Both the position numbers and the translations under genes were made by a program. From IMG/VR virus record IMGVR_UViG_3300030399_000026: a stretch of 47,825 nucleotides of DNA. One strand, 5' to 3'. Positions within the stretch are counted from its first letter, which is position 1, and each line of letters starts with the position of its first letter. The notes beneath the pieces are model-generated. The model worked only from the letters and a program-made list of their open reading frames with translations. It did no database searches and was not told the DNA's origin. The stretch is from a virus. Positions 1,428-28,715 of the stretch are shown here, in pieces.

Positions 1428-1709
1428 CTATGCTTGGTCGTCCCATAGGTCCTCTTCATCCATCGTTAGTAAATAAGAGTACACCTCATGCGCACCGATA
1501 GCCTTCGCTCTACGAACTGCTTCTTCATGCGGATCATCTAATCCCACGCCACCCCTAAAACGGGCTAGCTCCTCCTCCTCCAACTCCCGGAGGTGCCGCT
1601 CCAGCATCGCCTTGACCGCCTGTTGCACCGGATGCGCCGAGAAGAGCACCCAGTCCTCCTCCTCCACCACTACTGTCCTTGCCACCATCGCTCTCCTTAT
1701 CGTTGCCAC
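1428..1709 (-). CDS. Hypothetical acidic protein (start uncertain; alternative ATG at 1607)
   Basis: The ORF overlaps the Gly-rich 3' end of the portal ORF by 53-155 nt depending on the start used. The C-terminal part (EEAVRRAKAIGAHEVYSYLLTMDEEDLWDDQA) looks like a genuine protein. Confidence 0.4.
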   Translation of the reverse strand: MATIRRAMVARTVVVEEEDWVLFSAHPVQQAVKAMLERHLRELEEEELARFRGGVGLDDPHEEAVRRAKAIGAHEVYSYLLTMDEEDLWDDQA

Positions 1710-3861
1710 CCATCATTGAGTGGAGGATTTTGATTGCCTCCAGCGTTCCCTCTTGCTTGTTCTTCGCGGCTCCGATTTGCGCCTCAATAAGCGCAATCTG
1801 ATGCCCAGTATCCACACCCTTCGCCTCAGCAAGAGTTTGAACAACTTGTGCCTCCAAGAGTTTGATTTGGGCTTGTTGCAACTCAGCCTTGGAGACCAAG
1901 TCGAGGAGCTTGATCTTGAAGTCGAGTTGCTGCTTGGCCTGAGCCGACTGTTGCTTGAGTTGCTCGATCTGAAGCTTCGGGTTCTGCGGAGGCGGAACGG
2001 CGAACGGACCCTTAGGATCAGGTAGGAACTTGTCGATGTCAGGGACCTTCAGGGCTTGAAGGTAGTAACGATGGACTTGATAGATGTCGTAGCCTGGAGC
2101 CGCCATTGCCGCCTGCATCAGCGACGAGGCTTGGTTGTAGCGTTGGGCGTCCGACATGTAGAACGGGTCGGCGCTAGGGCGGATCGTAACCTCGGCATTC
2201 TTGTAGAGGTGCGCTGCTGCCTTAGACTGCGGCGGGGCTGACTGAGCGAAGTACGGCATGCTCTCGTCAAGGAACACGCAGTTCAGGCGGAACAGTTTGC
2301 GCAACTCCTGAGTGAAAGCCCGATGCGTCCGCTTGAAGATGCCGTTGAACACCTTCATGCCCTGCTCTACCATCGCACGGGAAGTCTCAGCCGGAGTATT
2401 CTGACCTGGGTTCTTACCTTGCAGAATGTCAACCGCACCAGCGATCTGCTGTCCATACTCGATGAGGAGGGTGAGCAGTTGGAAGAGCGACTGGTTAGGC
2501 GGTGGAGGGGGCAGAGGAACAACACTCTTCCTGATGTCATCTCCACTTCCATCAACAGTCTTCCACTCGCCGGGGCGGAAACGATACTCGCCCTTCTTAT
2601 TCTTGAACCCGCGCCCAAGGAAGCCCCCTCCAGCATTGGCAAGGGTTCCCGAATCGAGCATCTGGTTGAGCGAGGAATCAATGGCGTGATTGAGCGGCCC
2701 GAGTAGAGCACCGAATCCGAGGTCATAGAAGCCACCATCCGGCGAGGGGATGAAAGGATACTTCGTGAACATCGTCAGAGGGTTGATTCGGATGAGTTTT
2801 CCGGAGGGTAGGAAAGTAACATCCTTGCGAGTGAAACGCGGCACGATTCGCAGCACTTGGGCCGTATCATAGCGAACAGTGACGATGTATGGTTCGGCGT
2901 AGCCGTCGCCGTCCAAATCGAGCGTGCGATGTTGTTCCAGCAACTCGTATGGAGCATCGTGGTCGGCCACGACAGGCCGGATTCCTTGTCGGTCGTCGGT
3001 CTCTTCTTCGAGCATGTAGCGGAGTCGGGGCTCGGCTCGGGGGGAACCTTCTTTGAACTCGGCAAAGATTCCTCGGGCTTGGCGCTCGTAGACGGCGTTA
3101 GGGTCGAGGTAGATGATGTGGGTAAGGCGGGGGGCATGCTCAATGTCCTTGGTGTAGTAGGACACGACGATGTCCTTCGGGGAGATAAACTCCGAAACGT
3201 TGTGGCACAGGATGGGGTCGAAGTAGGACTTCTTGAAGGCGCACCCCATGATGGCTTGGGTCAAGAGCATCTTGTCGTGGTTCTCTTCCCAGGTCTCGTC
3301 CTCTTCGAGGATTTGATAAGACATGTGGTCGGCTATTTCGTTGGCCTGTTGGGTCAGGGCATCGAACTTGGCCTTGAGTTGCTGAGCTTGCTGCTGGGCT
3401 TGCTGCATAGCCTGCTGCGCCTGGGGGTCAGGCGGTTGACCCGGCTGGGCAGGAGGCATCGTAGGCAGCGTCAGCTTAGGCATTTTCTGTAGCGGACGAG
3501 CAGCGACAGGTTGTCCACCGTTGACCAGCGCGGGGTAGGCGCGAGACTGATACTGAAGGGCGGCAATAGTCAAGAGAGGGAACTTGACGTTGGCGGCATC
3601 CGGCCACGGGAAGGTCTTCTTCTCGGTGACTTGAAGGGCTAGGCGCATAGCCAACTGCATCCGCTCTTCCCATTCTTGGCGAGAGACCCGGTCGTTGTCG
3701 AAGTCCTGCTTGACCATCGCACCGAGGGTGTCGAGGTCATGCTCGTCGAAACGGTCGACGAGGTTCGAGGAGCGCATCAACTTCTCGTCGAGCGCGATGA
3801 AGTGTTCAAGGTTCCACGGAGCATTAGCCGGGGCCTGATCTTCGAAGTCAGTAACACTCAT
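1555..3861 (-). CDS. Portal protein (768 aa from ATG 3861; ORF open to 3903)
   Basis: Largest head-module ORF and next coding gene after terL. It has a Q/P-rich insertion (PPAQPGQPPDPQAQQAMQQAQQQAQQ) and a Gly-rich C-terminal tail. The call rests on size and synteny, not on a named motif. Confidence 0.7.
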   Translation of the reverse strand: MSVTDFEDQAPANAPWNLEHFIALDEKLMRSSNLVDRFDEHDLDTLGAMVKQDFDNDRVSRQEWEERMQLAMRLALQVTEKKTFPWPDAANVKFPLLTIAALQYQSRAYPALVNGGQPVAARPLQKMPKLTLPTMPPAQPGQPPDPQAQQAMQQAQQQAQQLKAKFDALTQQANEIADHMSYQILEEDETWEENHDKMLLTQAIMGCAFKKSYFDPILCHNVSEFISPKDIVVSYYTKDIEHAPRLTHIIYLDPNAVYERQARGIFAEFKEGSPRAEPRLRYMLEEETDDRQGIRPVVADHDAPYELLEQHRTLDLDGDGYAEPYIVTVRYDTAQVLRIVPRFTRKDVTFLPSGKLIRINPLTMFTKYPFIPSPDGGFYDLGFGALLGPLNHAIDSSLNQMLDSGTLANAGGGFLGRGFKNKKGEYRFRPGEWKTVDGSGDDIRKSVVPLPPPPPNQSLFQLLTLLIEYGQQIAGAVDILQGKNPGQNTPAETSRAMVEQGMKVFNGIFKRTHRAFTQELRKLFRLNCVFLDESMPYFAQSAPPQSKAAAHLYKNAEVTIRPSADPFYMSDAQRYNQASSLMQAAMAAPGYDIYQVHRYYLQALKVPDIDKFLPDPKGPFAVPPPQNPKLQIEQLKQQSAQAKQQLDFKIKLLDLVSKAELQQAQIKLLEAQVVQTLAEAKGVDTGHQIALIEAQIGAAKNKQEGTLEAIKILHSMMGGNDKESDGGKDSSGGGGGLGALLGASGATGGQGDAGAAPPGVGGGGASPF

Positions 3862-4103
3862 GATTGCAATTCCAAATAGGTAGACCACAAGGGCAGGCGT
3901 CACAATCTTCAGTGGGGTAGGGAGAGTAGGGCTCGCCGTCGCCCTCCCGGCTCACCGCTACGGAGGAGCTTACTTCGGGCGCTCCCAGATGTGCAAGGGT
4001 TCGCTCGCTACGCTCGCCGCCTTCGGCGCCCTTGACATCCGGTTCTGCGCGCCCTCGTGTCGCCCCTCTTCGCGGGTGAACCTCAACGGGCGCGGCATCG
4101 CTG

Positions 4104-5561
4104 CTAGTACCCAGTGATAGGGTTGCGTCCTTCATCTAAGGCTCCAGATTCTTCCATCTCCTCTTCCCACTCCAGTTCGTCAAGCTCGCGGCGGGTGAGA
4201 GAGGGGGAGAGTTTGTTGAGGTAGAGGCCAAGCCACGCCAGGGCGTCAACTCGGTCGTCGTTCTTCCCACGCGGGAAGTTTATCATCTCTTCGTAGAACG
4301 AGAACCACCATTCGGCGTCGCAGTCGAAGTGGACGCCGCCTGCCCGCATCCGGGCTTGGATGGAAGTGGCACGAGCCTGCTTGTCCTTGTGGGGGCGAAT
4401 CCTTTCAATCGATAGATAGCGCCCTCGTTTCCGCATCTCGGCTTCCAAGAACGGCCCGATGGTCTTGGCGATATTCTCGTCCTCGACGACCCAGAAGTCG
4501 ATGTTGTAAAGTTCCTGGAGGCGGAACATCTCTTCTATCGATTCAAGAGGGTCCAGACGCTTGGCAATAACTTCCACAATATGAAGTAGGCCATCAGGGC
4601 TAACTCCACCAACAACAATGGCAGTGGGATCGCCCTTATCGGACTGTCCAATCGAGAAGTCAATCGCCGCGTACATCGTCTTAGGTTCTTCATGATCCGC
4701 CGCCGTCATTGCACGGAAGTCGCTCTTCCGAAAGTAGGCGTCCGCTTCCGCAACAGGGTGAGAGAGATACTCTTGAGAGTAGCCCGAGGGGTTGCCTGCC
4801 GATATGTACCGCTGCCGCTCTCGACGAAGGCGTGCCTCCGTGAATTTCTCGGGCCAGAGAATTTCGCCAAAGTCGTCAAACGATTTATGGGCGCGGAAGC
4901 GACGACCCACCCATCCATTGTCAGGGTCTGTAAGTAGCCGTTCGAGTAGCGAATCCATATGTAGGATTGTCCCAAGGAACCGTACTCGCAGATTATCGGC
5001 CCCACACGGAAGGAGGGCGTTGTTGAACCAGTCTCTGAGTTTTTCACGGCGTTCCTTTGACATGACTGCTTCGTCGTTTTCTAAGTCATCGACGACGATG
5101 AGGGAGGGGCGCTTGTTGTGCCAGAGAAGGCCACGGACGGCTTGTTCAGCGCCCTTACCTACGACGCAGAACTCTCGACCCCCTGCCTCCGCTACCAGTT
5201 GGGTTTCGTTAGCCCGCAAGACCCGTACACCAAATTCGGTTCGTAGGTCATGGTTGTCCGTAAGTATTCTGGTGAGATTTGCAAGATGCCCTGCGGCGAG
5301 CGCTTCGGTCGCGGACACGAGGAGGGCGAAGTCATCAGAACCAAATAGAAGGCTTGCGAGACTGAAGGCGTGAGTTCCCGCAGTGGACTTGGCATGGCCG
5401 CGAGGAGCCGCAACTGCCACGTTCTGTTCGGGCGAACAGAATAGATTCCACAGGTCTCGGTGGAACTGGGGAGTTGGTTTTGGTTGGTCGAGGTCGGCAT
5501 GAAGGAAGGCTTCCATAAAACCCTCAACAAGGTGCGCATCGATGATGATCTTATTGCTCAT
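4104..5561 (-). CDS. terL: Terminase large subunit (485 aa from ATG 5561)
   Basis: Walker A-like VAAPRGHAKST and Walker B LIVVDDLEND are present. The C-terminal RNase-H-like nuclease acidic residues are in AAIDFSIG, WVVEDENI and GKNDDRVDAL. It overlaps the upstream TerS-like gene by 11 nt. Confidence 0.9.
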   Translation of the reverse strand: MSNKIIIDAHLVEGFMEAFLHADLDQPKPTPQFHRDLWNLFCSPEQNVAVAAPRGHAKSTAGTHAFSLASLLFGSDDFALLVSATEALAAGHLANLTRILTDNHDLRTEFGVRVLRANETQLVAEAGGREFCVVGKGAEQAVRGLLWHNKRPSLIVVDDLENDEAVMSKERREKLRDWFNNALLPCGADNLRVRFLGTILHMDSLLERLLTDPDNGWVGRRFRAHKSFDDFGEILWPEKFTEARLRRERQRYISAGNPSGYSQEYLSHPVAEADAYFRKSDFRAMTAADHEEPKTMYAAIDFSIGQSDKGDPTAIVVGGVSPDGLLHIVEVIAKRLDPLESIEEMFRLQELYNIDFWVVEDENIAKTIGPFLEAEMRKRGRYLSIERIRPHKDKQARATSIQARMRAGGVHFDCDAEWWFSFYEEMINFPRGKNDDRVDALAWLGLYLNKLSPSLTRRELDELEWEEEMEESGALDEGRNPITGY

Positions 5562-6177
5562 CGCGGGGGACCTCGGTGACGGCACCGTCGATGATGGACG
5601 GGTCTTTGGCGCCAAGGGCGCGGAGTTTGTTGGCGAGCAGGTTCATGCGGTCTGTGTCGCCGGGAATGGAGGTTGGTTCGTTGCGCAGCAATTGGCGCTT
5701 GATGAAGACGGAGTCGGCCACCCTCGTCAGGACGGAGGCCGTGATGGGCATGCGCCGTTTCGTGCCGTCCTTGTTGACGCCCGTCACCTCGCCCTTGATG
5801 ATGCGGTCCTCTAGCTCGATGAGGGACCGGTCAAGGATGCGGGTGTAGGTGGAGTCGAGAATGGTGTTGGAGTCCCTCTTGAACCGGGTCTCCTCTTCTT
5901 GCCACCAGAGTTGGCGCGCCATCTTGTTGATTTCGTAGACGGTCTTGCCGAACTCACGGGCGCAGAGGGCCATGTTGCCGGTCTCGCAGTACCGGCGGCA
6001 GATCGCAATGTCAAGGGTGACTAGCTCTTCGCCGGGAACCGTGCCCGCCGAGGCGCCGAAGGCGCCATCGGAAACGCGCTCGTCGGCTATGGCTTGAACA
6101 GCCGTATGGAATTGGTCTGCGGGCGGCTGAGGAGGAGACTCCTGTAGCACCGCCCCCTTCTTGTCCGTTACCTTCAT
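5551..6177 (-). CDS. Terminase small subunit-like DNA-binding protein (208 aa)
   Basis: Sits immediately upstream of and overlapping terL. It contains an HTH-like segment, ICRRYCETGNMALCAREFGKTVYEINKMAR. Confidence 0.6.
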   Translation of the reverse strand: MKVTDKKGAVLQESPPQPPADQFHTAVQAIADERVSDGAFGASAGTVPGEELVTLDIAICRRYCETGNMALCAREFGKTVYEINKMARQLWWQEEETRFKRDSNTILDSTYTRILDRSLIELEDRIIKGEVTGVNKDGTKRRMPITASVLTRVADSVFIKRQLLRNEPTSIPGDTDRMNLLANKLRALGAKDPSIIDGAVTEVPRDEQ

Positions 6178-6541: not shown

Positions 6542-6619
6542 TGGTCTGGGCGGCAGGATTCGAACCTGCGACCTCCTGCTTCCAGGGCAGGTGACTTGAC
6601 CGGACTAGCCTACACCCAG
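6542..6619 (-). tRNA. tRNA, anticodon UGG (Pro) if the 7-nt loop CCUGGAA is read canonically
   Basis: The reverse complement folds as a cloverleaf. Acceptor stem is CTGGGTG/CGCCCAG with an encoded A73-CCA. The D arm is GGCT/AGTC with GG in its loop. The anticodon stem is CCTGC/GCAGG, the variable loop is AGGTC, and the T arm is GCAGG-TTCGAAT-CCTGC. C1-G72 with A73 fits bacterial tRNA-Pro identity. Positions 33 (C) and 37 (A) are atypical. Confidence 0.8.
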
Positions 6620-7416
6620 ATCGATGACGCAGATCATATCACAGTCCATTCAAGATCGGGATTGACTGCACCCTGTTGCTACATCGAATGCGGTTAAAGC
6701 CTTTCGCGCGAGCGTTGCGATTGCCCCCCTCCGGCCCCTAGGACGGGATTATGGGACTGCTTACATACCTCCGGATGTAGTAGGCGCTTACAACATCTGC
6801 GCTGGCGCATGAAGCATGTGCTTACATCACTCGTTGTGTAGTGAGTGCTTACACCATGCTGATGCATGGGGCATCACGAGGCGTATGTAGTAGGTACATG
6901 GTAAGTGTAACAGTCGTCTAACCTAGGGTTTGTACTAATAACACTGCGCACTCTGCGCACCTAAGATTGAGTCAAGCCAAGCAACACGGCGAAAGTAGCA
7001 AAGCGGAGTGGCCAGCACGGCGCGAAGTACCGCCAGAGAAGCCGAACCTCTGTGATTAACGGCGCGCAGTAGCAGCACCCGACTAGCATGACAAGCTAGC
7101 CAAGCAAGACGGCCCTAGTGCAGAGCGCTGGTCAAGCATCCGCCTTCTAGATGCCCGGTCGTGACAGGTGTTCTTTAACAATTCGTACCCCATGCCTCAG
7201 GCGTTGCACCCTAGGTGGAGTGAGCGAGTAGCTAGCCGTGACAGGACTAGTCGAAAGCGCACAGAGCAAGACCGGACGAGTGCAGGCAAGACCGCAGGTG
7301 ATGGGGAGTTCAGTAGCGCACCCTAATGTTGGGTGCCAGACTAGTAGTTGAGTCTGGACCGGCGCCTTCGGCGAAAGCCAAGGGCACGGTCCTTTGTCAA
7401 CTACAGGAGCAGGATC
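6620..7416. promoter_or_regulatory. 797-bp ORF-free divergent control region (hairpin array plus short direct repeats)
   Basis: No credible ORF on either strand. GCTTACA occurs at 6759, 6786, 6820 and 6847. Hairpins include TACAT/ATGTA (6762-6779), TCACT/AGTGA (6829-6846), CCATGC/GCATGG (6853-6868) and CCAGACT/AGTCTGG (7335-7357). Direct repeats are agccaagcaaSacggc (6975, 7098), cgtgacagg (7160, 7237) and gcaagaccg (7266, 7286). Confidence 0.5.
6633..6641 (-). promoter_or_regulatory. Candidate extended -10 promoter (TGaTATGAT) for the tRNA and late operon
   Basis: The minus strand reads tgTGaTATGATctgcgtcatcgat immediately before tRNA position 1. There is no convincing -35 element. This is pattern recognition only. 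Confidence 0.3.
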
Positions 7417-7566
7417 ATGGAACAAGAGATTGGGTTGTATGTGGTGCGGTTGTTTGGGGCCGGGTATGTTGAGGTCGAGGCGGTTAGTGTTGATGATGCG
7501 CAGGTGAAGGCTGAGGTGTTGTATCCAGAGTTTGAACTGGCAACGGTTCCGCTGAGGTGCGATTAA
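7417..7566 (+). CDS. Hypothetical protein (49 aa), first early ORF
   Basis: RBS aggag plus 7 nt precedes ATG 7417. Product begins MEQEIGLYVVRLFGAGYVEVEAVSVDDAQ. Confidence 0.5.
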   Translation: MEQEIGLYVVRLFGAGYVEVEAVSVDDAQVKAEVLYPEFELATVPLRCD

Positions 7567-7568
7567 TC

Positions 7569-7691
7569 ATGGATGACTTCGGCAATGCCTTGGATGGCGA
7601 GTATCTGTTCGAAAAGCATTTTTTGGGGATGGATGATGCGGTGTTTGATGCGATGTTTGAGGCGTCGGACTTTTATGACGATGAGTATTGA
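7569..7691 (+). CDS. Very acidic 40-aa protein
   Basis: Found by hand translation and absent from the ORF track. Product is MDDFGNALDGEYLFEKHFLGMDDAVFDAMFEASDFYDDEY. It reads as a far more protein-like frame than the overlapping W/C/R-rich 7573-7959 ORF. Confidence 0.45.
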   Translation: MDDFGNALDGEYLFEKHFLGMDDAVFDAMFEASDFYDDEY

Positions 7692-8026: not shown

Positions 8027-8218
8027 ATGGATAGGTGGTGCGTCAAGACGAGTGAGATTTGCGATGGGGACGATGCTTTCGAGTCCGTCGATCAGGTAGA
8101 GGACAAGGACTTCCCGGAGCAACATTCGGAGGCAATCGTGTATGCGAGGTTTCAGGCCGAACGGGGATTGAAGGCAGTAGTGTTCCACAACGGGCAGTGG
8201 TATCAAACCTACGAATAG
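8027..8218 (+). CDS. Hypothetical acidic protein (63 aa)
   Basis: RBS gagggg plus 7 nt; clean ORF. Confidence 0.5.
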   Translation: MDRWCVKTSEICDGDDAFESVDQVEDKDFPEQHSEAIVYARFQAERGLKAVVFHNGQWYQTYE

Positions 8219-8227
8219 GGGGTTGTG

Positions 8228-8332
8228 ATGGAATCGTTGATTGCAGTGTATGCGGCATGGGAAGCGGCGGTGGTGCTGGGCGGGCTGGTAACGCTGATGG
8301 TGTTGGTGAATTTCTTAGGGGAAGGGGACTGA
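8228..8332 (+). CDS. Tiny hydrophobic peptide (34 aa)
   Basis: Hand translation gives MESLIAVYAAWEAAVVLGGLVTLMVLVNFLGEGD. The stop codon lies 4 nt before hammerhead 1, the same spacing seen at the other two ribozymes. Confidence 0.35.
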   Translation: MESLIAVYAAWEAAVVLGGLVTLMVLVNFLGEGD

Positions 8333-8336
8333 ATCA

Positions 8337-8391
8337 GGTCGAAACCCCGGCATGTTCGGGGTAAGCACGTAATGCGTGCTCTGATGAGACC
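8337..8391 (+). ncRNA. Type II hammerhead ribozyme 1 (predicted cleavage after A8363)
   Basis: Layout is ggtc-GAAA-[ccccg/gcatgtt/cgggg, closed by A8344-T8362]-gTA-[agcacg/taatg/cgtgct]-CTGATGA-gacc. All invariant core nucleotides are present. The flanking ggtc/gacc form the open stem II. Confidence 0.85.
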
Positions 8392-8405
8392 AATTGGGAG
8401 GATGT

Positions 8406-8744
8406 ATGAAAGCGATGGTTAATGTAGGGCTGCTCCGTGCGGGTGGCGGGTATGTGAGCGTGCAGGATATTCTCGCAACGTTCAAGGCGAACCGGATTGA
8501 AGTAGAGCGGTATGAGGTGAGGCTTATCCAGCCTTCACTGGAAGGAGAGGATACGTTTGTAGCAGAGGTGAACTTTCCGCTTGCCAACAATTACCGCGCA
8601 GTCTACGCGGCAAGCGTGGCATTGGGACAGGACTGTATCGCCGTGTTGTGGCCGTTCGGCGGGGAATTGATCGGCCCCAAAGCTGCCGAATGGGGCGACT
8701 TCCGGGAAGAATACTTTCACCGTCTGGAGGTGGAACATGTTTGA
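8406..8744 (+). CDS. Hypothetical protein (112 aa)
   Basis: RBS gggagg plus 4 nt precedes ATG 8406, 15 nt after hammerhead 1. Confidence 0.6.
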   Translation: MKAMVNVGLLRAGGGYVSVQDILATFKANRIEVERYEVRLIQPSLEGEDTFVAEVNFPLANNYRAVYAASVALGQDCIAVLWPFGGELIGPKAAEWGDFREEYFHRLEVEHV

Positions 8745-8829
8745 GATTGCCCTGTCTACGCTGATCGTGTTCGGCGCCATCCCCCTCTCTATGTGGAGTC
8801 TGAACCACCCAACCAAGGTGTCGAAGTAA
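8737..8829 (+). CDS. Tiny hydrophobic peptide (30 aa)
   Basis: Hand translation gives MFEIALSTLIVFGAIPLSMWSLNHPTKVSK. RBS is ggaggtgg. It overlaps the upstream stop, and its own stop lies 4 nt before hammerhead 2. Confidence 0.35.
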   Translation: MFEIALSTLIVFGAIPLSMWSLNHPTKVSK

Positions 8830-8833
8830 ACAA

Positions 8834-8898
8834 GGTCGAAACGCCGTGTCAGGTGCACGCCTGCGGCGTATTAGGGTATCGCCCTAACTGATGAGACC
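8834..8898 (+). ncRNA. Type II hammerhead ribozyme 2 (predicted cleavage after A8870)
   Basis: Layout is ggtc-GAAA-[cgccg...cggcg extended arm, closed by A8841-T8869]-gTA-[ttaggg/tatcg/ccctaa]-CTGATGA-gacc. Stem II may extend through aaacaa (about 8827-8832) pairing with ttgttt (8902-8907). Confidence 0.85.
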
Positions 8899-8917
8899 AG
8901 ATTGTTTCACGTGGAAC

Positions 8918-9112
8918 ATGGAGGCTGTGATGAAACAGTGGGGTGTTAAATTGAAGAACGAGCAGGGCGTGGAGTTTGCCTACTACTGCGACGCCGATAC
9001 GGAGTCGGGCGCGGTAGCGCAAGCGCTGGCAGAGTATGCAAACTGTGAGGTCGTCCTCACGCGCGACCTCGGCATGCTGGAATCGGGCAGCTACTACCAC
9101 AGGTTCATCTGA
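8918..9112 (+). CDS. Hypothetical protein (64 aa; alternative start 8930)
   Basis: In-frame ATGs at 8918 and 8930 (ggaggctgtgATG). Product includes MKQWGVKLKNEQGVEFAYYCDADTESGAV. Confidence 0.55.
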   Translation: MEAVMKQWGVKLKNEQGVEFAYYCDADTESGAVAQALAEYANCEVVLTRDLGMLESGSYYHRFI

Positions 9113-9282
9113 TGCGCGCCCTCACGATCAAGCCGCTACTGGTCTTTATCGCGGCGGTAGTGTCCTTGCACTTTGCGTGGGATATCTACCAAGACCTACC
9201 AAGTGTGACCGGATTTGTCGATCACACGTTTTCGTGTCATACGGGCGCGGTGCATGGCACCGTCCGTAATCCATTCGTTTGA
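9112..9282 (+). CDS. Small membrane or secreted protein (56 aa)
   Basis: TGATG overlap with the upstream gene. Hand translation gives MRALTIKPLLVFIAAVVSLHFAWDIYQDL... with a hydrophobic N-terminus. Confidence 0.4.
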   Translation: MRALTIKPLLVFIAAVVSLHFAWDIYQDLPSVTGFVDHTFSCHTGAVHGTVRNPFV

Positions 9283-9290
9283 GGTGAGAG

Positions 9291-9581
9291 ATGAGACAGA
9301 TAGGTAGAGACGTTGTGCAGGCGTTGAAAGAGCGCCGGTCGTTTCGCAAGGGTAATACGGAGGTCGCACGTGCCGACATATATACGGACGTGTACCTATT
9401 CGGCAATCGCATTGCCCGATACTTCGACACGGGGGATTTTGAGATTAATCTCCAGACGTTGCGGGAGTGGCCTACGCCGACTACCGCGTCACGGTTGAAT
9501 GACATTCTTCGCGGGCTCCAGCGCAACGATTACGTGTCTGTGCGTCGTGGCGGACCCTTCATTAACAACATTCGGATTTAA
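9291..9581 (+). CDS. Hypothetical protein (96 aa)
   Basis: RBS gaggtgagag precedes the ATG; clean ORF. Confidence 0.6.
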   Translation: MRQIGRDVVQALKERRSFRKGNTEVARADIYTDVYLFGNRIARYFDTGDFEINLQTLREWPTPTTASRLNDILRGLQRNDYVSVRRGGPFINNIRI

Positions 9582-9592
9582 GGAGGTTTCAC

Positions 9593-9763
9593 GTGGAACA
9601 TTTTCTCGCCTTTCTAGGCGCCTTAGCTGGTGTCTATCTCCTCTACCGTGCAGTCGAATCGCTTCTGGCCTTGCGCCGCCTAGGGCGATATTACTTCTGG
9701 GACGCCATCCGCTTGTGGGGGATTGTCGCCGTCATTGCACTCGCATTCGTGCACAACGCTTGA
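9593..9763 (+). CDS. Small two-TM membrane protein (56 aa, GTG start)
   Basis: RBS aaggagg plus 5 nt precedes GTG 9593. Product is EHFLAFLGALAGVYLLYRAVESLLALRRLGRYYFWDAIRLWGIVAVIALAFVHNA. The stop lies 3 nt before hammerhead 3. Confidence 0.4.
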   Translation: MEHFLAFLGALAGVYLLYRAVESLLALRRLGRYYFWDAIRLWGIVAVIALAFVHNA

Positions 9764-9766
9764 CCT

Positions 9767-9823
9767 GTCGAAACCCGGCGCCTAGCAAGCCGGGTAGTGG
9801 CGAGATACGCCACCTGATGAGAC
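9767..9823 (+). ncRNA. Type II hammerhead ribozyme 3 (predicted cleavage after A9796)
   Basis: Layout is gtc-GAAA-[cccggc/gcctagcaa/gccggg, closed by A9773-T9795]-gTA-[gtggcg/agata/cgccac]-CTGATGA-gac. The core is intact, but only 3 contiguous stem II pairs are visible. Confidence 0.75.
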
Positions 9824-9843
9824 TCACTTGCAAGGAGGTCGCA

Positions 9844-10020
9844 ATGGGAGTCCGTAAACCCGTTCGCACGCGTCGCAGTGTCCCATTGCGCCCGTCGAAT
9901 CGCAGCTATACCACGGTGCAGAGTAAGCCCGTGTTGGTAATCCCCCGGAGGTACTTTGGCACGGTGTCGGAGTATGTTGCGGAATTCGAAGATACTAACC
10001 ATCTTAAGAGGACTGTATGA
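9844..10020 (+). CDS. Small basic protein (58 aa)
   Basis: RBS aaggagg plus 5 nt precedes ATG 9844, 21 nt after hammerhead 3. Confidence 0.5.
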   Translation: MGVRKPVRTRRSVPLRPSNRSYTTVQSKPVLVIPRRYFGTVSEYVAEFEDTNHLKRTV

Positions 10021-10157
10021 CAACAGCACAACTGGAACGGATTGTTTTCACCTCGTCGACGGACTTCGCATGTCGGGATGAGGGGGGGTATGACTTGGAT
10101 ATTGACGGGCTCGATTGGGACCGCGTCAATGAACTGAGTTTCGAAGGGGAGGAATGA
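10017..10157 (+). CDS. Acidic 46-aa protein
   Basis: ATGA overlap with the upstream gene. Hand translation gives MTTAQLERIVFTSSTDFACRDEGGYDLDIDGLDWDRVNELSFEGEE. Confidence 0.4.
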   Translation: MTTAQLERIVFTSSTDFACRDEGGYDLDIDGLDWDRVNELSFEGEE

Positions 10158-10159
10158 AC

Positions 10160-10375
10160 ATGGCCCATGCAGGTAACGGCGGCATCCAACGCCACTCCCT
10201 AGGCGACGACTACCCATTCACGGTAGTGGGAACCATCCGCGACGGGGAGACGCGGTATTACGTGCAGAACCTCATCACGGGGGACTTGTATCACAAGGTC
10301 AATCCGTTTCTCACTAGCGAAACCGCGCACGAAGAGTGCCGATTCATCAAGGAGTTTTACGACCATGAGCAATAA
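10160..10375 (+). CDS. Hypothetical protein (71 aa)
   Basis: RBS gaaggggagg plus 7 nt precedes ATG 10160. Confidence 0.55.
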   Translation: MAHAGNGGIQRHSLGDDYPFTVVGTIRDGETRYYVQNLITGDLYHKVNPFLTSETAHEECRFIKEFYDHEQ

Positions 10376-10544
10376 CATCAAAGTCAACTTGGCCTTCACC
10401 CTCGACGAAGCGCGGGAGCTTCACCAACTCCTGCACGATATCGTCACCGACAACAAGCAGGCTCTGCCCATCGACCGCCACCTGCATGAGGCCATTGCAG
10501 CGCAACTCGCTGACGCAGGCATTGTTCCACGTGAAACATCGTAG
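10365..10544 (+). CDS. Hypothetical protein (59 aa)
   Basis: RBS aaggag lies upstream. Hand translation gives MSNNIKVNLAFTLDEARELHQLLHDIV.... The 3' end carries one copy of the GTTCCACGTGAAAC motif. Confidence 0.45.
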   Translation: MSNNIKVNLAFTLDEARELHQLLHDIVTDNKQALPIDRHLHEAIAAQLADAGIVPRETS

Positions 10545-10645
10545 GCTTCAAATGGATAACCCCTGCATCAAGACTGGCGTCGCACTAACTCCTCTTCAGT
10601 ACCAATGTCGTGGACTACGCCTCACGGCGAACTAAAGGAGCAACA

Positions 10646-11320
10646 ATGGACCAACTAATCACCTCATCGACAGTGTGGCGTGCTGTCGATCAAATCGCCG
10701 CAGAGGCCCGTGCACGGACTTTGTCGGACGACCCTTCCAACTACCTCAACCGGCGAGAGTATGGCTTCGTCCTCGACTCCAAGAGCGGCGCCATCCTGTC
10801 CCGCGTACAGGGCGACACGAAGACGGTTAATTTCGAATGCGCTGCTCACCTCATCCCCGGCAACGTAGTCGTCCACTCGCACCCGAACGCCACCCCCCTG
10901 TCGCCGGAAGACATCACCATCGCCACAGGCAACGGCGACAACATTGGCGAATCCATCGTCTTCGCTGTCTCCATCGACGGTTCCCTCTTCTGGTCCGGTG
11001 GATGGAACAAGAAAAAGCTGCGTGGCCCCAGCGATGTCGCTTCCCTCTGGGAGAACATAGTCGCAAAGTGGGGCAAAGCCCTCGCCGATAGGCTGTATTC
11101 CCCCTCCGACATCCGCATGGCGCGGATTGATCCCTCCTTCCAACCCCTCTCCCCAGAAGGCATCACCCTGGACGACATCCTTGCCTTCTCCCTTCACCAC
11201 TTCTGGAAAGACTTCGCCAAGCGCGACCTCCTGACCTACGGCTACCGCCTGACACCAGAGTTCGAGGAGAGGTATGAACTCGTCCGCAATGCCGCCTTTC
11301 GAGTAGGAGCACCTTTATGA
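10646..11320 (+). CDS. JAB/MPN (JAMM) domain protein, RadC-like metalloprotease fold (224 aa)
   Basis: RBS aaaggag precedes the ATG. The motif VVHSHPNATPLSPEDI is an H-x-H-P...S-x-x-D arrangement, one residue shorter than the classic spacing. An upstream Glu lies in REYGFVLD, which fits the E...HxH...S..D JAMM signature. Confidence 0.65.
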   Translation: MDQLITSSTVWRAVDQIAAEARARTLSDDPSNYLNRREYGFVLDSKSGAILSRVQGDTKTVNFECAAHLIPGNVVVHSHPNATPLSPEDITIATGNGDNIGESIVFAVSIDGSLFWSGGWNKKKLRGPSDVASLWENIVAKWGKALADRLYSPSDIRMARIDPSFQPLSPEGITLDDILAFSLHHFWKDFAKRDLLTYGYRLTPEFEERYELVRNAAFRVGAPL

Positions 11321-11490
11321 AAGCCGGAAAAGCACACAATGCCGCCGCCTATCTCCTCGCCCATGGGAGTCCCTTCGAGCGCCATCTAGCAGAAGCGTGG
11401 TATGCGGGCGGGGAAGTTAATCGTCGAAGACTAGTGAATGCCTTCCCCGACCTTTTCCTGAGGGCACTTCCTTTGATAGGAGATATCTAA
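11317..11490 (+). CDS. Hypothetical protein (57 aa)
   Basis: ATGA overlap with the JAB gene; found by hand translation. Confidence 0.45.
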   Translation: MKAGKAHNAAAYLLAHGSPFERHLAEAWYAGGEVNRRRLVNAFPDLFLRALPLIGDI

Positions 11491-17237: not shown

Positions 17238-17443
17238 TCCCCCTCAAACTCTTCCTCGCGGTCTTCTTCACCGCCATCGTCACCTTCATCTGGACGGAGT
17301 GTCACACCGCCTCCTCCTGCGACGATGACAACACCTCCATCACCCATATCGCGGGCAAGGACTACTTCTGCGCGGACTACAACTCCACCGTGGAAGTTTT
17401 TCGCCGGTTGAAGGCCAACCAAGCCAAAGGACCGCAAGCATGA
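17234..17443 (+). CDS. Small membrane protein (69 aa, GTG start)
   Basis: GTGA overlap with the upstream gene. The N-terminus is a TM segment, LKLFLAVFFTAIVTFIW. Confidence 0.45.
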   Translation: MIPLKLFLAVFFTAIVTFIWTECHTASSCDDDNTSITHIAGKDYFCADYNSTVEVFRRLKANQAKGPQA

Positions 17444-18300
17444 CCGACACTGTCGAAGTTCTAGAAGGCTTCAACACCATCCTGATGGGTGCTAGTGGCA
17501 CGGGGAAAACCCACGCCATTGGGACCCTCGTGGACACGGGCCTTGAAGTCTTTTACATCCCTTTGGAATCAGGTACGGAATCTCTTATCGGCTATTACAC
17601 CGATAAGGGTCAACCTGTGCCTGACAATCTCCACATCCACGCCCTCTCCCAACCCAAAGCCTCTTTCATGGACCTGTTCGACGCGGCGAAGCGCACCAAC
17701 ACGCTCCCCCACGACGCAGTCATGAAGATGGCCGACCCCAAGCGCTCCAAGTACGATGGCTACCTTCAACTCCTTACTTCCCTCAACGACTTCACAGATA
17801 ACAGAACTGGTGAAAAATTTGGACCGGCTGACACCTGGGGAACAGATCGAGTGGTGGTCGTTGACGGTCTCACCGGACTTAATAATTTTGCGATGCAACT
17901 TGTCATCGGAGGAAGAGCGGAAAGAACTCAAACGGACTGGGGCGTTGCCCAATCATATGTTATGTCTCTCCTTCGAAAACTCACCGATGGTTGCCGATGC
18001 CATTTCGTACTTATCGCGCACGTTGAGAGGGAGACCGACTTGGTGTTGGGAGGGGTCAAGCTCACCGTCAGTACCCTCGGAAAAGCCATTGCCGGAACAA
18101 TCCCCCCCTTATTCAGCGATGTAGTGCTGACGAAGAAGGATGTCGACAAGTTCTTTTGGTCAACCGCCGAGGCTAACGCCGATGTCAAGAACCGAAACTT
18201 GCCCTTGAAGGCGGGGCAGGCGCCCTCATTTGCTCCTCTCTACCAGAAGTGGTTGGAACGTAGCAAGGGCATGCAAAGTGTGGAGGTGGCAGATGAATAA
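17440..18300 (+). CDS. Sak4-like RecA-fold ATPase (AAA_24-type, 286 aa)
   Basis: Walker A is ILMGASGTGKTHA and Walker B is RVVVVDGLTGL. It sits next to the exonuclease and SSB-like genes, as in phage recombination modules. Confidence 0.75.
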   Translation: MTDTVEVLEGFNTILMGASGTGKTHAIGTLVDTGLEVFYIPLESGTESLIGYYTDKGQPVPDNLHIHALSQPKASFMDLFDAAKRTNTLPHDAVMKMADPKRSKYDGYLQLLTSLNDFTDNRTGEKFGPADTWGTDRVVVVDGLTGLNNFAMQLVIGGRAERTQTDWGVAQSYVMSLLRKLTDGCRCHFVLIAHVERETDLVLGGVKLTVSTLGKAIAGTIPPLFSDVVLTKKDVDKFFWSTAEANADVKNRNLPLKAGQAPSFAPLYQKWLERSKGMQSVEVADE

Positions 18301-24010: not shown

Positions 24011-24357
24011 CTCAATGGGCAACGAATCCCTATACCCCCTACGGGGCGCAGATGGCTTCCCCCCACAACATCCAAGTGGGGGATCGCTTCCATTACGACG
24101 ACACCTCCATCAATCCCAACACCGCCGACATCTTCGAGGGGGAGGTGATATCGGTGATGAGTGCGGATGTCTTCCGTGCCAAGATCACTTCGCGGCAGGC
24201 GCAGAGTTTCTATGGAGGAACCGAGGTCTCACTGTCCTCGGCCAGCCGCTACATCACGTGGTACGCCAGTCTACTGGCGCCGCCTCTGCAAACGTCTCGG
24301 GAACTGCCCAACGGCTTCGACTACGACGCCCACAAAGACTTTATGAGGAACCTCTGA
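24007..24357 (+). CDS. Hypothetical protein (116 aa) ending ...DYDAHKDFMRNL
   Basis: ATGA overlap with the upstream gene. Confidence 0.55.
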   Translation: MTQWATNPYTPYGAQMASPHNIQVGDRFHYDDTSINPNTADIFEGEVISVMSADVFRAKITSRQAQSFYGGTEVSLSSASRYITWYASLLAPPLQTSRELPNGFDYDAHKDFMRNL

Positions 24358-26018
24358 TGTCGTTTCGCCCTGAAGGTCCACTTGATGCCCGGATCATGGT
24401 CATCTCGGATGCCCCAGATTTCGACAGGAAGGGGGTGCCACGCCCTTTTGGGCAGAACCCTGGGGAGTTGCTAGGGCGCATGCTTGCGGAGGCCGGGATA
24501 GCCGTTTCCTCGTGCTTCGTGACGAGCGCCGTGCGTGAACGTCCGCCGGGGAATAAGATCGAGTTGTGGGCGCCCCCCACAAAAAAGGGGCAGACCGAGT
24601 TGGCTGGCTCCGAAAACGGCGTCGAGTGCCAAGGCCGCATCGTTCACCGCTACATCAAGGAAGGCTATGAAAAGCTCCAAGAGGAAATCGCCCTCGTTCA
24701 ACCCCGGCTCATTATTGCGCTGGGTAATACTGCTCTTTGGGCTCTTACTGGCCTCGTTTCTGTTTCTAAGTGGCGTGGAAGCACTCTTACTGTGCCTTCC
24801 CTTCCAGGGGTAACAATTGTTCCTACTCTGCACCCTGCCTCTGTCCTACGCCAGTGGTCTACACGCCCCATCGTCGTGCAAGACTTGCGGAGGGCCGCAC
24901 AAGCCGCAACTATCCCTCCTGTTAAGCCCGCATGGAGGTTTGCTATACGACCTTCATTGCAGCAGGTGCGAGAAACGATGGCGAATCTGGAAGCCACGCT
25001 TGATGCAGCTACCGCCCCCCTCGTCCTCTCGACCGACATAGAAACTCGCGCCCAGCACATCACTTGCTTGGGCATTGCCTGGAGCAAGCTCGATGCCATT
25101 TGCATCCCATTCCTCTCTGTCGACCGTCCAGACGGCTATTGGTCACAGGACGATGAGGCTGAGATTGTCTACCTTCTCTATCGGGTTCTCACGCACCGTA
25201 ACGCATTGGTCATCGGACAAAACTTCATCTACGACACTCAGTATATTCTGCGGCATTGGGGATTCGTACCACGCTTTGGGCGTGACACTATGGTCGCCTT
25301 CCACGTTTGCTTTCCGGGAATGCCGAAGTCCCTCGACCATATCGCGTCGATGACTAACGAGTGGTACGTGTATTGGAAGGATGATGGCAAGGAATGGGAC
25401 AAAGGAGCAGACCAAGATGAAGATCGTTATTGGACGTACAACTGTGAGGACTGCGTTCGGACTTATGAGGCCGATGAAGTTCTTCAGACCGTTGTGGATA
25501 AGATGGGACTGCGTGGACCACACGACTTTCAGCAGAAGCTATTCTATCCAGTGCTGCGTACTATGGTTCGGGGTGTACGCATCGATAAGGCACGACAGAC
25601 TGCAATGCGAGCGAGGCTGAACCACCATGCGAAGGAATGTATCCAGGCTATCGAGCAGATGGTGGGGTGGCCGCTCAACCCTAAGTCGCCCAAGCAAATG
25701 CAGAAGTTCTTCTACGAAGAGCTTGGCTTACCGGTCCAGAAGAAACGCGGTTCTATCGGTCCATCGTGTGACGACGCAGCGCTTGATACGTTCCGCGCAA
25801 AAGTTCCATACCTCCGACCGCTGGTTGATGCTATCAAAGAGTTTCGCTCTTGTGAAACCGTCGCAGCGAACGCGTTGAAGGCAGGAGCAATAGGCCATGA
25901 TGGAAGAGTCCACTGCTCCTACAACATAACTGGAACAACTACGTTCCGTTTCTCGTCCTCTACGGACGCCTTTGGTAGCGGGTATAACCTGCAAAACATT
26001 ACTGCTGGAGATGAATGA
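24357..26018 (+). CDS. Family-A DNA polymerase, part I: UDG-like N-domain, 3'-5' exonuclease and N-terminal half of the polymerase domain (553 aa)
   Basis: The UDG family-4-like motifs are IMVISDAPDFDRKGVPRPF and TLHPAS. The exonuclease motifs are STDIET, GQNFIYDTQY and YNCEDC. The polymerase thumb region is PKSPKQMQKFFYEELGLP. The ORF ends ...GSGYNLQNI-TAGDE-stop, exactly at the conserved PolA NLQNIP element. Confidence 0.85.
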   Translation: MSFRPEGPLDARIMVISDAPDFDRKGVPRPFGQNPGELLGRMLAEAGIAVSSCFVTSAVRERPPGNKIELWAPPTKKGQTELAGSENGVECQGRIVHRYIKEGYEKLQEEIALVQPRLIIALGNTALWALTGLVSVSKWRGSTLTVPSLPGVTIVPTLHPASVLRQWSTRPIVVQDLRRAAQAATIPPVKPAWRFAIRPSLQQVRETMANLEATLDAATAPLVLSTDIETRAQHITCLGIAWSKLDAICIPFLSVDRPDGYWSQDDEAEIVYLLYRVLTHRNALVIGQNFIYDTQYILRHWGFVPRFGRDTMVAFHVCFPGMPKSLDHIASMTNEWYVYWKDDGKEWDKGADQDEDRYWTYNCEDCVRTYEADEVLQTVVDKMGLRGPHDFQQKLFYPVLRTMVRGVRIDKARQTAMRARLNHHAKECIQAIEQMVGWPLNPKSPKQMQKFFYEELGLPVQKKRGSIGPSCDDAALDTFRAKVPYLRPLVDAIKEFRSCETVAANALKAGAIGHDGRVHCSYNITGTTTFRFSSSTDAFGSGYNLQNITAGDE

Positions 26019-27161: not shown

Positions 27162-27531
27162 GCAGTGGCAAGAGCGCCTCACTAAGAAAGCGGAGCGCAC
27201 TGCCACGATGGAGAATGCTTTCGGCTATCGGCGCAGGTGGTTCGACCGGGTCGAGGGCAACATCATCAACGAAATGGTGGCATGGATTCCCCAATCCACC
27301 GTAGCCATCATCATCAACCACGCCTACACAAACATCGATGCGAACCTACCTGATGTGGATATATTGCTTCAAGTACACGACTCTCTTACTGGGCAGTTTC
27401 CGCTGGAAGATCGTGAGAAGCATATCGCGGATATCACCCGCGAAAGTACCATTGTCGTTCCTTACCCTGATCCTCTTATCGTCCCTGTTGGCCTGAAGCT
27501 ATCGACGGATAGTTGGGGGCGTTGCAAATGA
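26815..27531 (+). CDS. Family-A DNA polymerase, part II: palm and fingers motifs A, B and C (238 aa, GTG start)
   Basis: RBS ggag plus 8 nt precedes GTG 26815. AIPNCREMF continues the NLQNIP...R..F element. Motif A is LDLDSADLRIV, motif B is FKKLCHGTNYMG and motif C is LLQVHDS. Confidence 0.8.
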   Translation: MAIPNCREMFIPDNGREMFDLDLDSADLRIVTWESNCRGMKDLFAAGVKPYVAVAQEYYHDPSITKSHPAYQVFKKLCHGTNYMGKPPTIAGQCGLLVNDVTRIQKWYFEKFPEIKQWQERLTKKAERTATMENAFGYRRRWFDRVEGNIINEMVAWIPQSTVAIIINHAYTNIDANLPDVDILLQVHDSLTGQFPLEDREKHIADITRESTIVVPYPDPLIVPVGLKLSTDSWGRCK

Positions 27532-28715
27532 GAAAGCTAGATAACTGGCTCGACGAGTTCGTGCGCTACGGACAGGTCGGGGAAGCACCGGATCACCTCC
27601 TCTTCTGGACGGGGGTGTCTACTATTGCAGGCGCATTGGGGAGGAAGGTATGGCTAGAGCAGGGATTGTTTCGTTGGTACGCAAACTTCTACGTGGTCCT
27701 CGTTGCTCCCCCTGGGATCATCTCGAAGACAACGTGTGCTGGTATCGGTGTGAAGTTGCTGCGCCAAGTGGACGAGGTGTTCTTCGGGCCGAATGTCGTT
27801 ACGTGGCAAGCATTGGTTTCGTCCTTCAAGAAAGCGAACTCAGTTACCGAGGAGGGTCATGGCGAGTCTATTGAGACCCATTCACTCAACATTTTTTCTG
27901 GGGAGTTTGGAAACCTGCTGACCCCGAACGACCGGGAGATGATGGACATGCTGGTGTCCCTATGGGACTGCGCATCGATCTACAAGGAGACGAAGAAGGA
28001 TGGCGCTGAGTCGATTGAGAACACCTTTCTCAACCTGATTGCATGCACTACGCCCGGGTGGATTAGCGGCAACATCCCCCCGTACATGATCGAGGGCGGG
28101 TTGGTGAGCCGTATCATCTGGGTCTATGGGGAAGAGAAGCGGAAGCTGGTTGCCTACCCCGGCTTAGCCTTCAACACGGCGGCAAGTGAGATGCGCAGGC
28201 AGGAGATTCGCCTCGTCGAGGACCTCCGTGCTATCTCCAAACTGAAGGGCGAGTTCGGCATGACGGAGGAGGCTATCGCTTGGGGCGAGGAGTGGTATCA
28301 GGCCCACTACTTCCTCCACAAGAAGGGCGCCGATGACGCACGCTTCGGGGGCTACCTCGCCCGGAAGCAAACCCATATCCACAAGCTGGCGATGATCCTA
28401 TCCGCCGCCCGTGGCGATTCCATGCTCATCACCGTCGAGGACCTACAAAATGCTGAGACCCATATCACCGCGCTGGAAGCCAGCCTGCCGCAAATCTTCG
28501 ACCGCATTGGGAAATCTGAGACATCATCGCAGACTGATCGACTACTCTCATTTATCGGGCAACATGCGCAAGGAGTGCCGATGGCTACGGCTTATCAGCA
28601 TGTACACAACTACTTCCCCAAGCTTGATGATTTCCAAGCGGTGGTCAAAGGGCTTAAAGCTGCGGGTATGGTGAAGCAGAGGGTTGAAGGAGGAACAATC
28701 CTCCTCCACCTTTAG
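27528..28715 (+). CDS. P-loop replication protein, helicase-like (DUF3987/primase-helicase-type resemblance, 395 aa)
   Basis: ATGA overlap with polymerase part II. It has a deviant Walker A, VLVAPPGIISKTT, preceded by FWTGVSTIAGALGRKVW. Position and size fit a replicative helicase, but the family call is weak. Confidence 0.5.
   Translation: MRKLDNWLDEFVRYGQVGEAPDHLLFWTGVSTIAGALGRKVWLEQGLFRWYANFYVVLVAPPGIISKTTCAGIGVKLLRQVDEVFFGPNVVTWQALVSSFKKANSVTEEGHGESIETHSLNIFSGEFGNLLTPNDREMMDMLVSLWDCASIYKETKKDGAESIENTFLNLIACTTPGWISGNIPPYMIEGGLVSRIIWVYGEEKRKLVAYPGLAFNTAASEMRRQEIRLVEDLRAISKLKGEFGMTEEAIAWGEEWYQAHYFLHKKGADDARFGGYLARKQTHIHKLAMILSAARGDSMLITVEDLQNAETHITALEASLPQIFDRIGKSETSSQTDRLLSFIGQHAQGVPMATAYQHVHNYFPKLDDFQAVVKGLKAAGMVKQRVEGGTILLHL

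Follow-up and report, generated by a model that had tools for sequence, protein, structure and literature searches.

A 47,825-nucleotide (nt) stretch of viral DNA (IMG/VR virus record IMGVR_UViG_3300030399_000026; termed here, in its whole length, the window) carries three genuine type II hammerhead ribozyme motifs on its plus strand, termed here HH1 (8337-8391), HH2 (8834-8898) and HH3 (9767-9823). An earlier note, made by reading the sequence alone, had assigned the three elements to exactly these positions and had described their layout correctly. Cleavage itself is predicted: it is probable that the elements sit within a rightward early or replication transcript and, by cleaving themselves, divide it into segments capped by hairpins. 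The motif, its fold, its covariation and its placement between genes can be read directly from the DNA; cleavage in vivo, the fate of the cleaved ends and a benefit to the phage are what the mechanism proposed below would add to them. With three fully diverged and intact copies in one short early operon, the locus provides a clean example of such an arrangement.

Type II hammerheads are common in bacteria, and in prophages several of them may flank genes, alone or in short blocks (Perreault et al. 2011, PMC3088659). That study demonstrated cleavage in vitro for three tandem arrangements--those of Clostridium scindens and Azorhizobium caulinodans and a triple arrangement in Agrobacterium tumefaciens--and, for the last of these, which surrounds ardA, cleavage in vivo as well; it proposed that such ribozymes process long phage transcripts into operon- or gene-length messenger RNAs (mRNAs), and it noted that the flanked genes are not constant (PMC3088659). 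Three type II hammerheads near phage-like genes of Desulfovibrio vulgaris likewise cleave in vivo (Olzog et al. 2021, PMC8782182). The earlier note called the biological role of these ribozymes unresolved, and a 2019 review indeed lists the purpose of bacterial and phage hammerheads as open (PMC6765202); a literature search for a newer paper settling their role in phages or bacteria found none. The note overstated the novelty of the locus, however, inasmuch as clustered, active, gene-flanking hammerheads, including a triple arrangement, were published in 2011 (PMC3088659), from which time such arrangements in phages and prophages have been on record; the window is one more case, in an uncultivated phage.

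All three elements have the circular permutation that defines type II, that is, stems I and III are capped by loops and stem II is left open, being built from the 5' and 3' flanks. Written with the two hairpins in brackets and their loops in lower case or as lengths, the layouts are GGUC-GAA-[A CCCCGG caugu UCGGGG U]-A-[AGCACG uaaug CGUGCU]-CUGAUGA-GACC for HH1, GGUC-GAA-[A CGCCG ..17 nt.. CGGCG U]-A-[UUAGGG uaucg CCCUAA]-CUGAUGA-GACC for HH2 and GUC-GAA-[A CCCGGC gccuagcaa GCCGGG U]-A-[GUGGCG agaua CGCCAC]-CUGAUGA-GAC for HH3 (Table 1). The core is invariant, as had been claimed: no copy departs from CUGAUGA or GAA, the roughly 15 conserved core positions are intact throughout, and A15.1-U16.1, the GUA triplet (with A17) and G10.1-C11.1 are present in each. 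Stems I and III, by comparison, have wholly different sequences among the three copies, yet are paired in every one of them, and for each element folded in isolation the structure of minimum free energy is the three-way junction. Certainty is lowest for HH3.

Within the window the motif is specific. CTGATGA occurs at seven sites on the two strands, three of which (HH1-HH3) carry the hammerhead layout; a type II descriptor that allowed one core mismatch and was applied to both strands matched exactly these three; and neither type I or type III hammerhead candidates nor degenerate copies elsewhere were found in the window. A looser descriptor (stem I of at least 4 base pairs (bp), stem III of at least 3 and stem II of at least 2) found one match in total among 1000 dinucleotide-preserving shuffles, as against the three observed, giving a chance expectation of ~0.001 per window.

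Elements for comparison were obtained by searching viral contigs with the pattern GTCGAAA-N25-55-CTGATGAGAC, which yielded at least 120 loci; all counts of elements in other contigs given here are counts among the matches listed. A covariance model (termed R1) was built from 15 elements of equal length, all of them taken from viral contigs other than the window, and was then run with its filters off. HH1, HH2 and HH3 scored 60.3, 52.5 and 34.3 bits (E = 2e-16, 5e-14 and 2e-8), the next-best match in the window being one of 11 bits; the type II identity earlier read from the core, the capped stems I and III and the open stem II is upheld by these matches. Covariation of the stems, which had been remarked upon from the three copies, held within the window and also in an alignment of 65 elements, where pairing holds in 99.7% of cells and both sides have changed in 14 of the 16 pairs; none of 500 shuffles matched this, and slid controls were also far off. 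(A second pattern, CGAAAC...CTGATGAG, was rejected: many of its matches are coding false positives in a Mu GpT-like gene for the major capsid protein, the window homologue of which lies at 45692-46567; the contigs concerned are L136, L146, L155, L159, L163, L170, L176, L187, L222, L223, L225 and L226.)

By the length of loop I, viral type II hammerheads form at least two groups. Where loop I is at least 8 nt long, it shows complementarity of at least 4 bp to the 3' tail in 77 of 88 elements; where it is at most 5 nt long, this complementarity is lacking. In hammerheads of the type described by the Rfam family RF02276 (Hammerhead_II), the 3' tail forms a pseudoknot with loop I (PMC3088659). HH1-HH3 share with this family, and with the type II hammerheads of Perreault et al., the catalytic core, the circular permutation and the bacterial or phage context; they differ in that the RF02276 consensus combines a 2-3 bp stem II with a loop I no shorter than 8 nt, which forms at least 4 bp of pseudoknot with the 3' tail, whereas HH1-HH3 have a loop I of 5 nt, a stem II of 3-4 bp and no pseudoknot. 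The corresponding short-loop variant is defined here by R1, is not a curated family, and comprises 38 elements outside the window. Among these, stem II has 4 bp in 36; an A stands directly 5' of stem II in all 38 and a purine directly 3' of it in 36; a 6-bp stem I is closed by a G-C pair in 35; and loop I reads U-N-N-N-G, with A preferred in the middle, in 31. Stem II is GGUC/GACC in 27 of the 38, which come from unrelated contigs, and varies with compensation (GGUC/GACC, GGAC/GUCC, AGUC/GACU). HH1 and HH2 show every one of these features (A-GGUC...GACC-A; loops UAAUG and UAUCG). HH3 lies outside this description, having a U.U fourth pair, C on both flanks and the loop AGAUA (a loop also present in L037, with a similar one in L067, the resemblance being limited to the loop); lacking the features of the variant, it may be slower.

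To judge from its conserved positions, the short-loop variant probably uses, in place of the pseudoknot, a contact between loop I and what may be called an 'opened loop II'. The arrangement of a purine and an A around a 4-bp stem II, together with the first U of loop I, presumably resembles the loop I/loop II contact of type I and type III hammerheads with loop II opened; the conservation of these flanking residues and of the loop I features points to a specific tertiary contact. In hammerheads of seven other contigs (L020, L038, L048, L079, L090, L158 and L164) a different feature recurs, namely an AUCAG tail directly 3' of stem II. This is the reverse complement of the core CUGAU, and a hairpin between the two could lock the catalytic core away in what may be an off-state; HH1-HH3 have no such tail.

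The three elements occupy a constant place between genes. They follow the stop codon of an upstream open reading frame (ORF) at a distance of 4, 4 and 3 nt (HH1, HH2 and HH3, from stop codon to stem II), and the end of stem II is followed at 14, 31 and 20 nt by the next start codon, with a ribosome-binding site (RBS) 4-21 nt past the 3' end of the ribozyme (GGGAGG at 8396-8401, 4 nt past HH1; AAGGAGG at 9832-9838, 8 nt past HH3). The flanking ORFs are on the same strand as the hammerheads and have good RBSs. The same map results when genes are called independently on a near-identical contig: exactly three sizeable gaps are left, each holding one hammerhead; elsewhere between 8200 and 10550, genes overlap or are 8-12 nt apart. 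In this way the hammerheads bound a block of two ORFs (8406..8829) and one of four (8930..9763). The same order of stop, ribozyme and RBS is a general rule for type II hammerheads in viral contigs. For 164 unique elements, the stop codon of an upstream ORF lies within 40 nt in 90%--within about 5 nt in 120 of the 148 elements that have such a stop, some of these stops overlapping the 5' strand of stem II--and an RBS with a start codon lies within 80 nt downstream in 85%, typically within 10-40 nt; the corresponding values for random positions are 26% and 23%.

Two uncultivated viral contigs carry this motif in long arrays, with about one hammerhead per small gene: L048 has nine in 2.9 kb (2148-5079, plus strand) and L047 has eight in 3.2 kb (8155-11321, plus strand). 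Motif and placement relative to stop and RBS are the same as in the window, and the L048 elements are of the short-loop variant; neither contig has protein homology to the phage, however, and the array of the window is smaller, its copies sharing no stem sequence.

There is no DNA-level match to the window among deposited phages, and the terminases of the closest cultured relatives are at most 42% identical; the closest of them, Alcaligenes phage vB_Af_QDWS535 (42%), has no hammerhead. A search with the large terminase found two related viral contigs, L121 and L122 (73% and 69% identity), which share the portal as well; in metagenomes this search added only fragments, and in genome contigs it gave no match. 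L121 has one hammerhead and L122 none, compared with three in the window. The L121 element (7150-7216, minus strand) belongs to the short-loop variant, with loop UGAAG and a GUC triplet, and lies ~2.8 kb from the terminase start, a distance similar to that of HH1, although its flanking genes are not homologous. Since the early regions of both contigs are not homologous to that of the window, orthologous ribozymes cannot be compared.

Two genes of the locus, ORF A and ORF E (Table 1), have no relatives among the viral contigs, and a protein search from them found an 88%-identical protein for which no contig is on record. Distant homologues of ORF A adjoin homologues of Kyano_Gp96 (i.e., of ORF E), and these neighbourhoods contain no hammerhead, which rules out a conserved association between gene and ribozyme. 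The ribozymes thus follow neither particular genes nor the lineage of the phage. A protein identical to ORF A is on record in 72 assembly blocks, of which two near-identical contigs (L233 and L234) were retrieved; both represent the same phage with identical ribozymes, so that no microevolution can be read from them. The phage, which recurs in one ENA sample series (ERZ2724xxxx assemblies), is uncultivated and has no known host, and so offers no ready test in vivo, contrary to the earlier note's view of the genome as a compact, testable case.

The mechanism proposed here is as follows. HH1-HH3 would be transcribed within the rightward early or replication transcript, and each three-way junction would cut itself after A17, that is, after A8363, A8870 and A9796, the predicted sites that had been placed correctly on the motif. 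The transcript would be converted into four segments, containing the upstream genes, ORF A and B, ORF C to F, and ORF G onward. On the 5' side of each cut, the product would retain its stop codon, and its 3' end would consist of the G+C-rich hairpin of stem III and one further nucleotide, which bears a 2',3'-cyclic phosphate; on the 3' side, the product would begin with a 5'-OH and would carry the stem I hairpin from its first nucleotide, followed by the RBS of the next gene. In predicted folds the 3'-end hairpins left by cleavage have energies of -11 to -15.7 kcal/mol, and stem I forms at nucleotide 1 of the 3' products. RNase E and RNase J gain entry in a manner that depends on the 5' end, and 5'-OH ends capped by a hairpin are poor substrates for them; a 3' hairpin with a cyclic phosphate (and hence no 3'-OH) hinders 3' exonucleases and polyadenylation; both ends produced by cleavage are therefore expected to be protected. 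The cuts would uncouple the stability and the translation of adjacent early-gene blocks, which would become four independently stable units. A functional analogy is offered by RiboJ-type synthetic insulators, in which a hammerhead just upstream of the RBS removes the RNA before it and leaves an mRNA that starts with a 5'-OH and a hairpin, and which make downstream expression independent of upstream context; the analogy is one of function only, RiboJ having been engineered from a type III satellite-RNA hammerhead with an added hairpin.

Several observations weigh against this mechanism, or against some of its steps. The check that the earlier note had suggested, a search with the Rfam Hammerhead_II model, does not support it at the family's threshold: on the whole window at the gathering score, RF02276 gave no hammerhead (a tRNA was all that was returned), and on a 1.65-kb region at E<=10 it gave no hammerhead match; on slices of ~85 nt, Hammerhead_II is the best Rfam family for each element, but with 23.7, 16.7 and 15.3 bits (HH1, HH2 and HH3) against a gathering score of 37, and with a match to HH3 that covers the core region only. 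The pseudoknot architecture of that family is indeed absent, the longest Watson-Crick match between loop I and 3' tail being 3, 3 and 2 bp, and the tertiary contact for fast cleavage at physiological Mg2+ would be one deduced from conservation only. Stem II of HH3 has just 3 bp (GUC/GAC) before a U.U mismatch, as against 4 bp in HH1 and HH2, and the centroid fold of HH3 lacks it; in longer context stems I and III persist, and stem II of HH1 competes with other pairings. The presence of one copy in L121 and none in L122 implies that the elements are dispensable for this phage group. As to the start of the transcript, a scan for sigma-70 promoters found sites no more frequent than in shuffles. 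What the earlier note called an early polycistron is a putative transcript, deduced from the gene order and the lack of strong terminators. Unmasking of the RBS by cleavage is not supported either: in ViennaRNA predictions its accessibility changed little and inconsistently from the uncut to the cut state (0.64-0.69 to 0.64, 0.38 to 0.53 and 0.19-0.40 to 0.44). Finally, with the stop codon 3-4 nt upstream, a terminating ribosome would cover stem II and G12-A14, so that cleavage would have to compete with translation.

The Rfam result is of wider use, in that a short-loop, pseudoknot-free variant missed by the threshold and filters of Rfam implies that standard annotation undercounts phage hammerheads. 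This and the other by-products of the comparison, namely the features of the variant and the placement rule, should be useful for experiments on function; they leave the category of the finding unchanged.

Competition with ribosomes also underlies a different, rather unlikely reading, in which the ribozymes are conditional: a ribosome at the stop codon would open stem II and mask G12-A14, cleavage would be confined to transcripts that are untranslated or not yet reached by a first ribosome, and mRNA processing would thereby depend on whether, or when, the upstream gene is translated. A stop codon adjoining stem II, both in the window and in 120 of the 148 viral elements, is what translation gating would lead one to see, and the pairing of AUCAG tails with the CUGAU core in other contigs suggests that 'off' folds exist in the class. 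Such tight spacing could, however, reflect mere compaction of phage genomes; moreover, HH1-HH3 are without AUCAG, there is no sign of a ligand-binding or switch element, and, taken in isolation, the elements fold unambiguously. It is improbable, too, that the elements are active yet neutral or selfish cassettes, spread into gaps of the accessory region and tolerated since cuts between cistrons are harmless. Their copy number (3, 1 and 0 among related phages), the lack of conservation of the flanking genes among relatives, the distant ORF A and ORF E homologues that stand side by side without a hammerhead, and the inconstancy of flanked genes reported by Perreault et al. (PMC3088659) are all in line with this. 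But no stem sequence is shared, so that the copies are not recent duplicates, and core and pairing are still perfect; the combination of diverged stems with an intact core and intact pairing argues for purifying selection on activity, and the precise order of stop, ribozyme and RBS recurs in unrelated contigs.

The failure at the Rfam threshold, the missing pseudoknot and the weak stem II of HH3 could also mean that the elements are non-catalytic intergenic hairpin repeats (mRNA stabilisers, attenuators or protein-binding sites) that resemble hammerheads by chance or are decayed relics of them. This is very unlikely: some 15 core positions are intact in three of three copies with fully diverged stems, the chance expectation is ~0.001 per window with R1 E-values down to 2e-16, and no T-run follows the hairpins, so that intrinsic terminators are excluded. 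Equally slight is the probability that cleavage is followed by ligation, the 507-nt (8364-8870) and 926-nt (8871-9796) segments being rejoined into circular or spliced RNAs. Here the GACC of one copy would pair with the GGUC or GUC of the next to form a nicked hammerhead, whose ends would be joined by the reverse reaction or by RtcB; in a version that is just as hard to credit, each excised block would refold a nicked chimeric hammerhead from its own ends and, ligated by the reverse reaction or by host RtcB, become an early mRNA that is circular and proof against exonucleases. Neighbouring copies have stem II halves that can pair with each other, and chimeric ribozymes are geometrically possible, stems I and III being self-contained hairpins; the possibility was raised by Perreault et al., whose own search for spliced or circular products was negative (PMC3088659). 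The shared GGUC/GACC, however, is explained by its conservation across the short-loop variant (27 of 38), neighbours in the nine-copy array of L048 have incompatible stem II halves (GACC beside UGCC), and the ORFs end in ordinary stops, a circle thus bringing no obvious coding gain.

As active hammerheads that divide an early transcript, HH1-HH3 would resemble the prophage clusters of A. tumefaciens, Clostridium scindens and Azorhizobium caulinodans, which likewise consist of same-strand hammerheads bounding genes or gene blocks in phage DNA. Those clusters belong to prophages of sequenced bacteria, and their cleavage was demonstrated, whereas here the motifs are read from the sequence of an uncultivated tailed phage, and the genes that they flank are unrelated to those of the clusters and have no assigned function. 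The hammerheads of D. vulgaris, too, adjoin hypothetical and phage-like genes; they lie at three separate genomic locations rather than in one array, and their 2',3'-cyclic-phosphate and 5'-OH ends have been mapped by cyPhyRNA-seq, whereas the copies of the window are known as sequences. Tandem hammerheads of viroids, satellite RNAs and retrozymes have in common with the present case that successive copies excise a segment with 5'-OH and cyclic-phosphate ends; they are, however, of type III (or type I) and belong to RNA replicons or retroelements, in which the segment is circularised and replicated, whereas the present copies are encoded in phage DNA and would release segments of ordinary mRNA, and there is no evidence of circles.

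PHROG matches identify the window as a tailed-phage genome of ~48 kb (Table 1). The hammerhead locus lies near the start of a long rightward block of small genes that runs into the replication genes.

Table 1. Positions, in the window, of the hammerhead elements with their parts, of the surrounding ORFs and of genes identified by PHROG matches
Feature	Position	Strand	Evidence or remark
HH1, type II hammerhead	8337..8391	+	sequence; descriptor match; R1 match; junction is minimum-free-energy fold
HH1 stem II, 3' strand (GGUC)	8337-8340	+	
HH1 G12-A14	8341-8343	+	
HH1 stem III hairpin	8344-8362	+	
HH1 A17	8363	+	predicted cleavage 8363/8364
HH1 stem I hairpin	8364-8380	+	loop UAAUG
HH1 C3-A9 (CUGAUGA)	8381-8387	+	
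HH1 stem II, 5' strand (GACC)	8388-8391	+	
HH2, type II hammerhead	8834..8898	+	sequence; descriptor match; R1 match; fold
HH2 GGUC	8834-8837	+	
HH2 GAA	8838-8840	+	
HH2 stem III hairpin, extended	8841-8869	+	
HH2 A17	8870	+	predicted cleavage 8870/8871
HH2 stem I	8871-8887	+	loop UAUCG
HH2 CUGAUGA	8888-8894	+	
HH2 GACC	8895-8898	+	
HH3, type II hammerhead, weaker copy	9767..9823	+	sequence; descriptor match; R1 match
HH3 GUC	9767-9769	+	
HH3 GAA	9770-9772	+	
HH3 stem III	9773-9795	+	
HH3 A17	9796	+	predicted cleavage 9796/9797
HH3 stem I	9797-9813	+	loop AGAUA
HH3 CUGAUGA	9814-9820	+	
HH3 GAC	9821-9823	+	
Small hydrophobic ORF, 35 aa	8225..8332	+	stop 4 nt before HH1; independent gene call in near-identical contig L233 (3823-3927) agrees
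ORF A, 112 aa	8406-8744	+	phrog_11722
ORF B, 30 aa, hydrophobic	8737-8829	+	overlaps ORF A
ORF C	8930-9112	+	
ORF D	9112-9282	+	
ORF E	9291-9581	+	Pfam PF23790 Kyano_Gp96; phrog_554
ORF F, 56 aa	9593-9763	+	stop ends 3 nt before HH3
ORF G, 58 aa	9844..10020	+	first ORF past HH3
Portal	1555-3903	-	PHROG match
Large terminase	4104-5615	-	PHROG match
Sak4-like protein	17440-18300	+	PHROG match
DNA polymerase	24015-26018	+	PHROG match
Primase	27513-28715	+	PHROG match
Lytic internal virion or tail protein	32859-35870	-	PHROG match
Connector protein	39097-41940	-	PHROG match

Some further features of the early region may be mentioned. Between the packaging genes and this region there is a tRNA-Pro gene (anticodon TGG; 6542-6619, minus strand; 61.4 bits with the Rfam tRNA model). 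It is followed, on the plus strand, by a cluster of short repeats at 6758, 6785, 6819 and 6846, that is, three exact copies of TGCTTACA (all that the window contains) and one copy with a single mismatch, spaced 27-34 nt apart within 6758-6853; these may be early promoters or operator sites, and a simple sigma-70 scan found nothing there. After the repeats come ~550 nt poor in ORFs, the first convincing RBS with ATG being at 7418, and near the start of the early block (7570-7691, plus strand) lies a strongly acidic ORF of 40 amino acids (aa), MDDFGNALDGEYLFEKHFLGMDDAVFDAMFEASDFYDDEY, whose composition is reminiscent of small DNA-mimic or anti-restriction proteins. An AUG within the CUGAUGA core of HH2 (8891-8893) is in frame with ORF C, which an ORF listing accordingly gives as 8891..9112; in view of the RBS GGAGG at 8920-8924, the ATG at 8930 is favoured as the likely real start. 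Directly 5' of each hammerhead there is a very small hydrophobic ORF (35, 30 and 56 aa in the order of HH1 to HH3). These three ORFs look like membrane peptides, and their position may be a coincidence, several early ORFs being hydrophobic.

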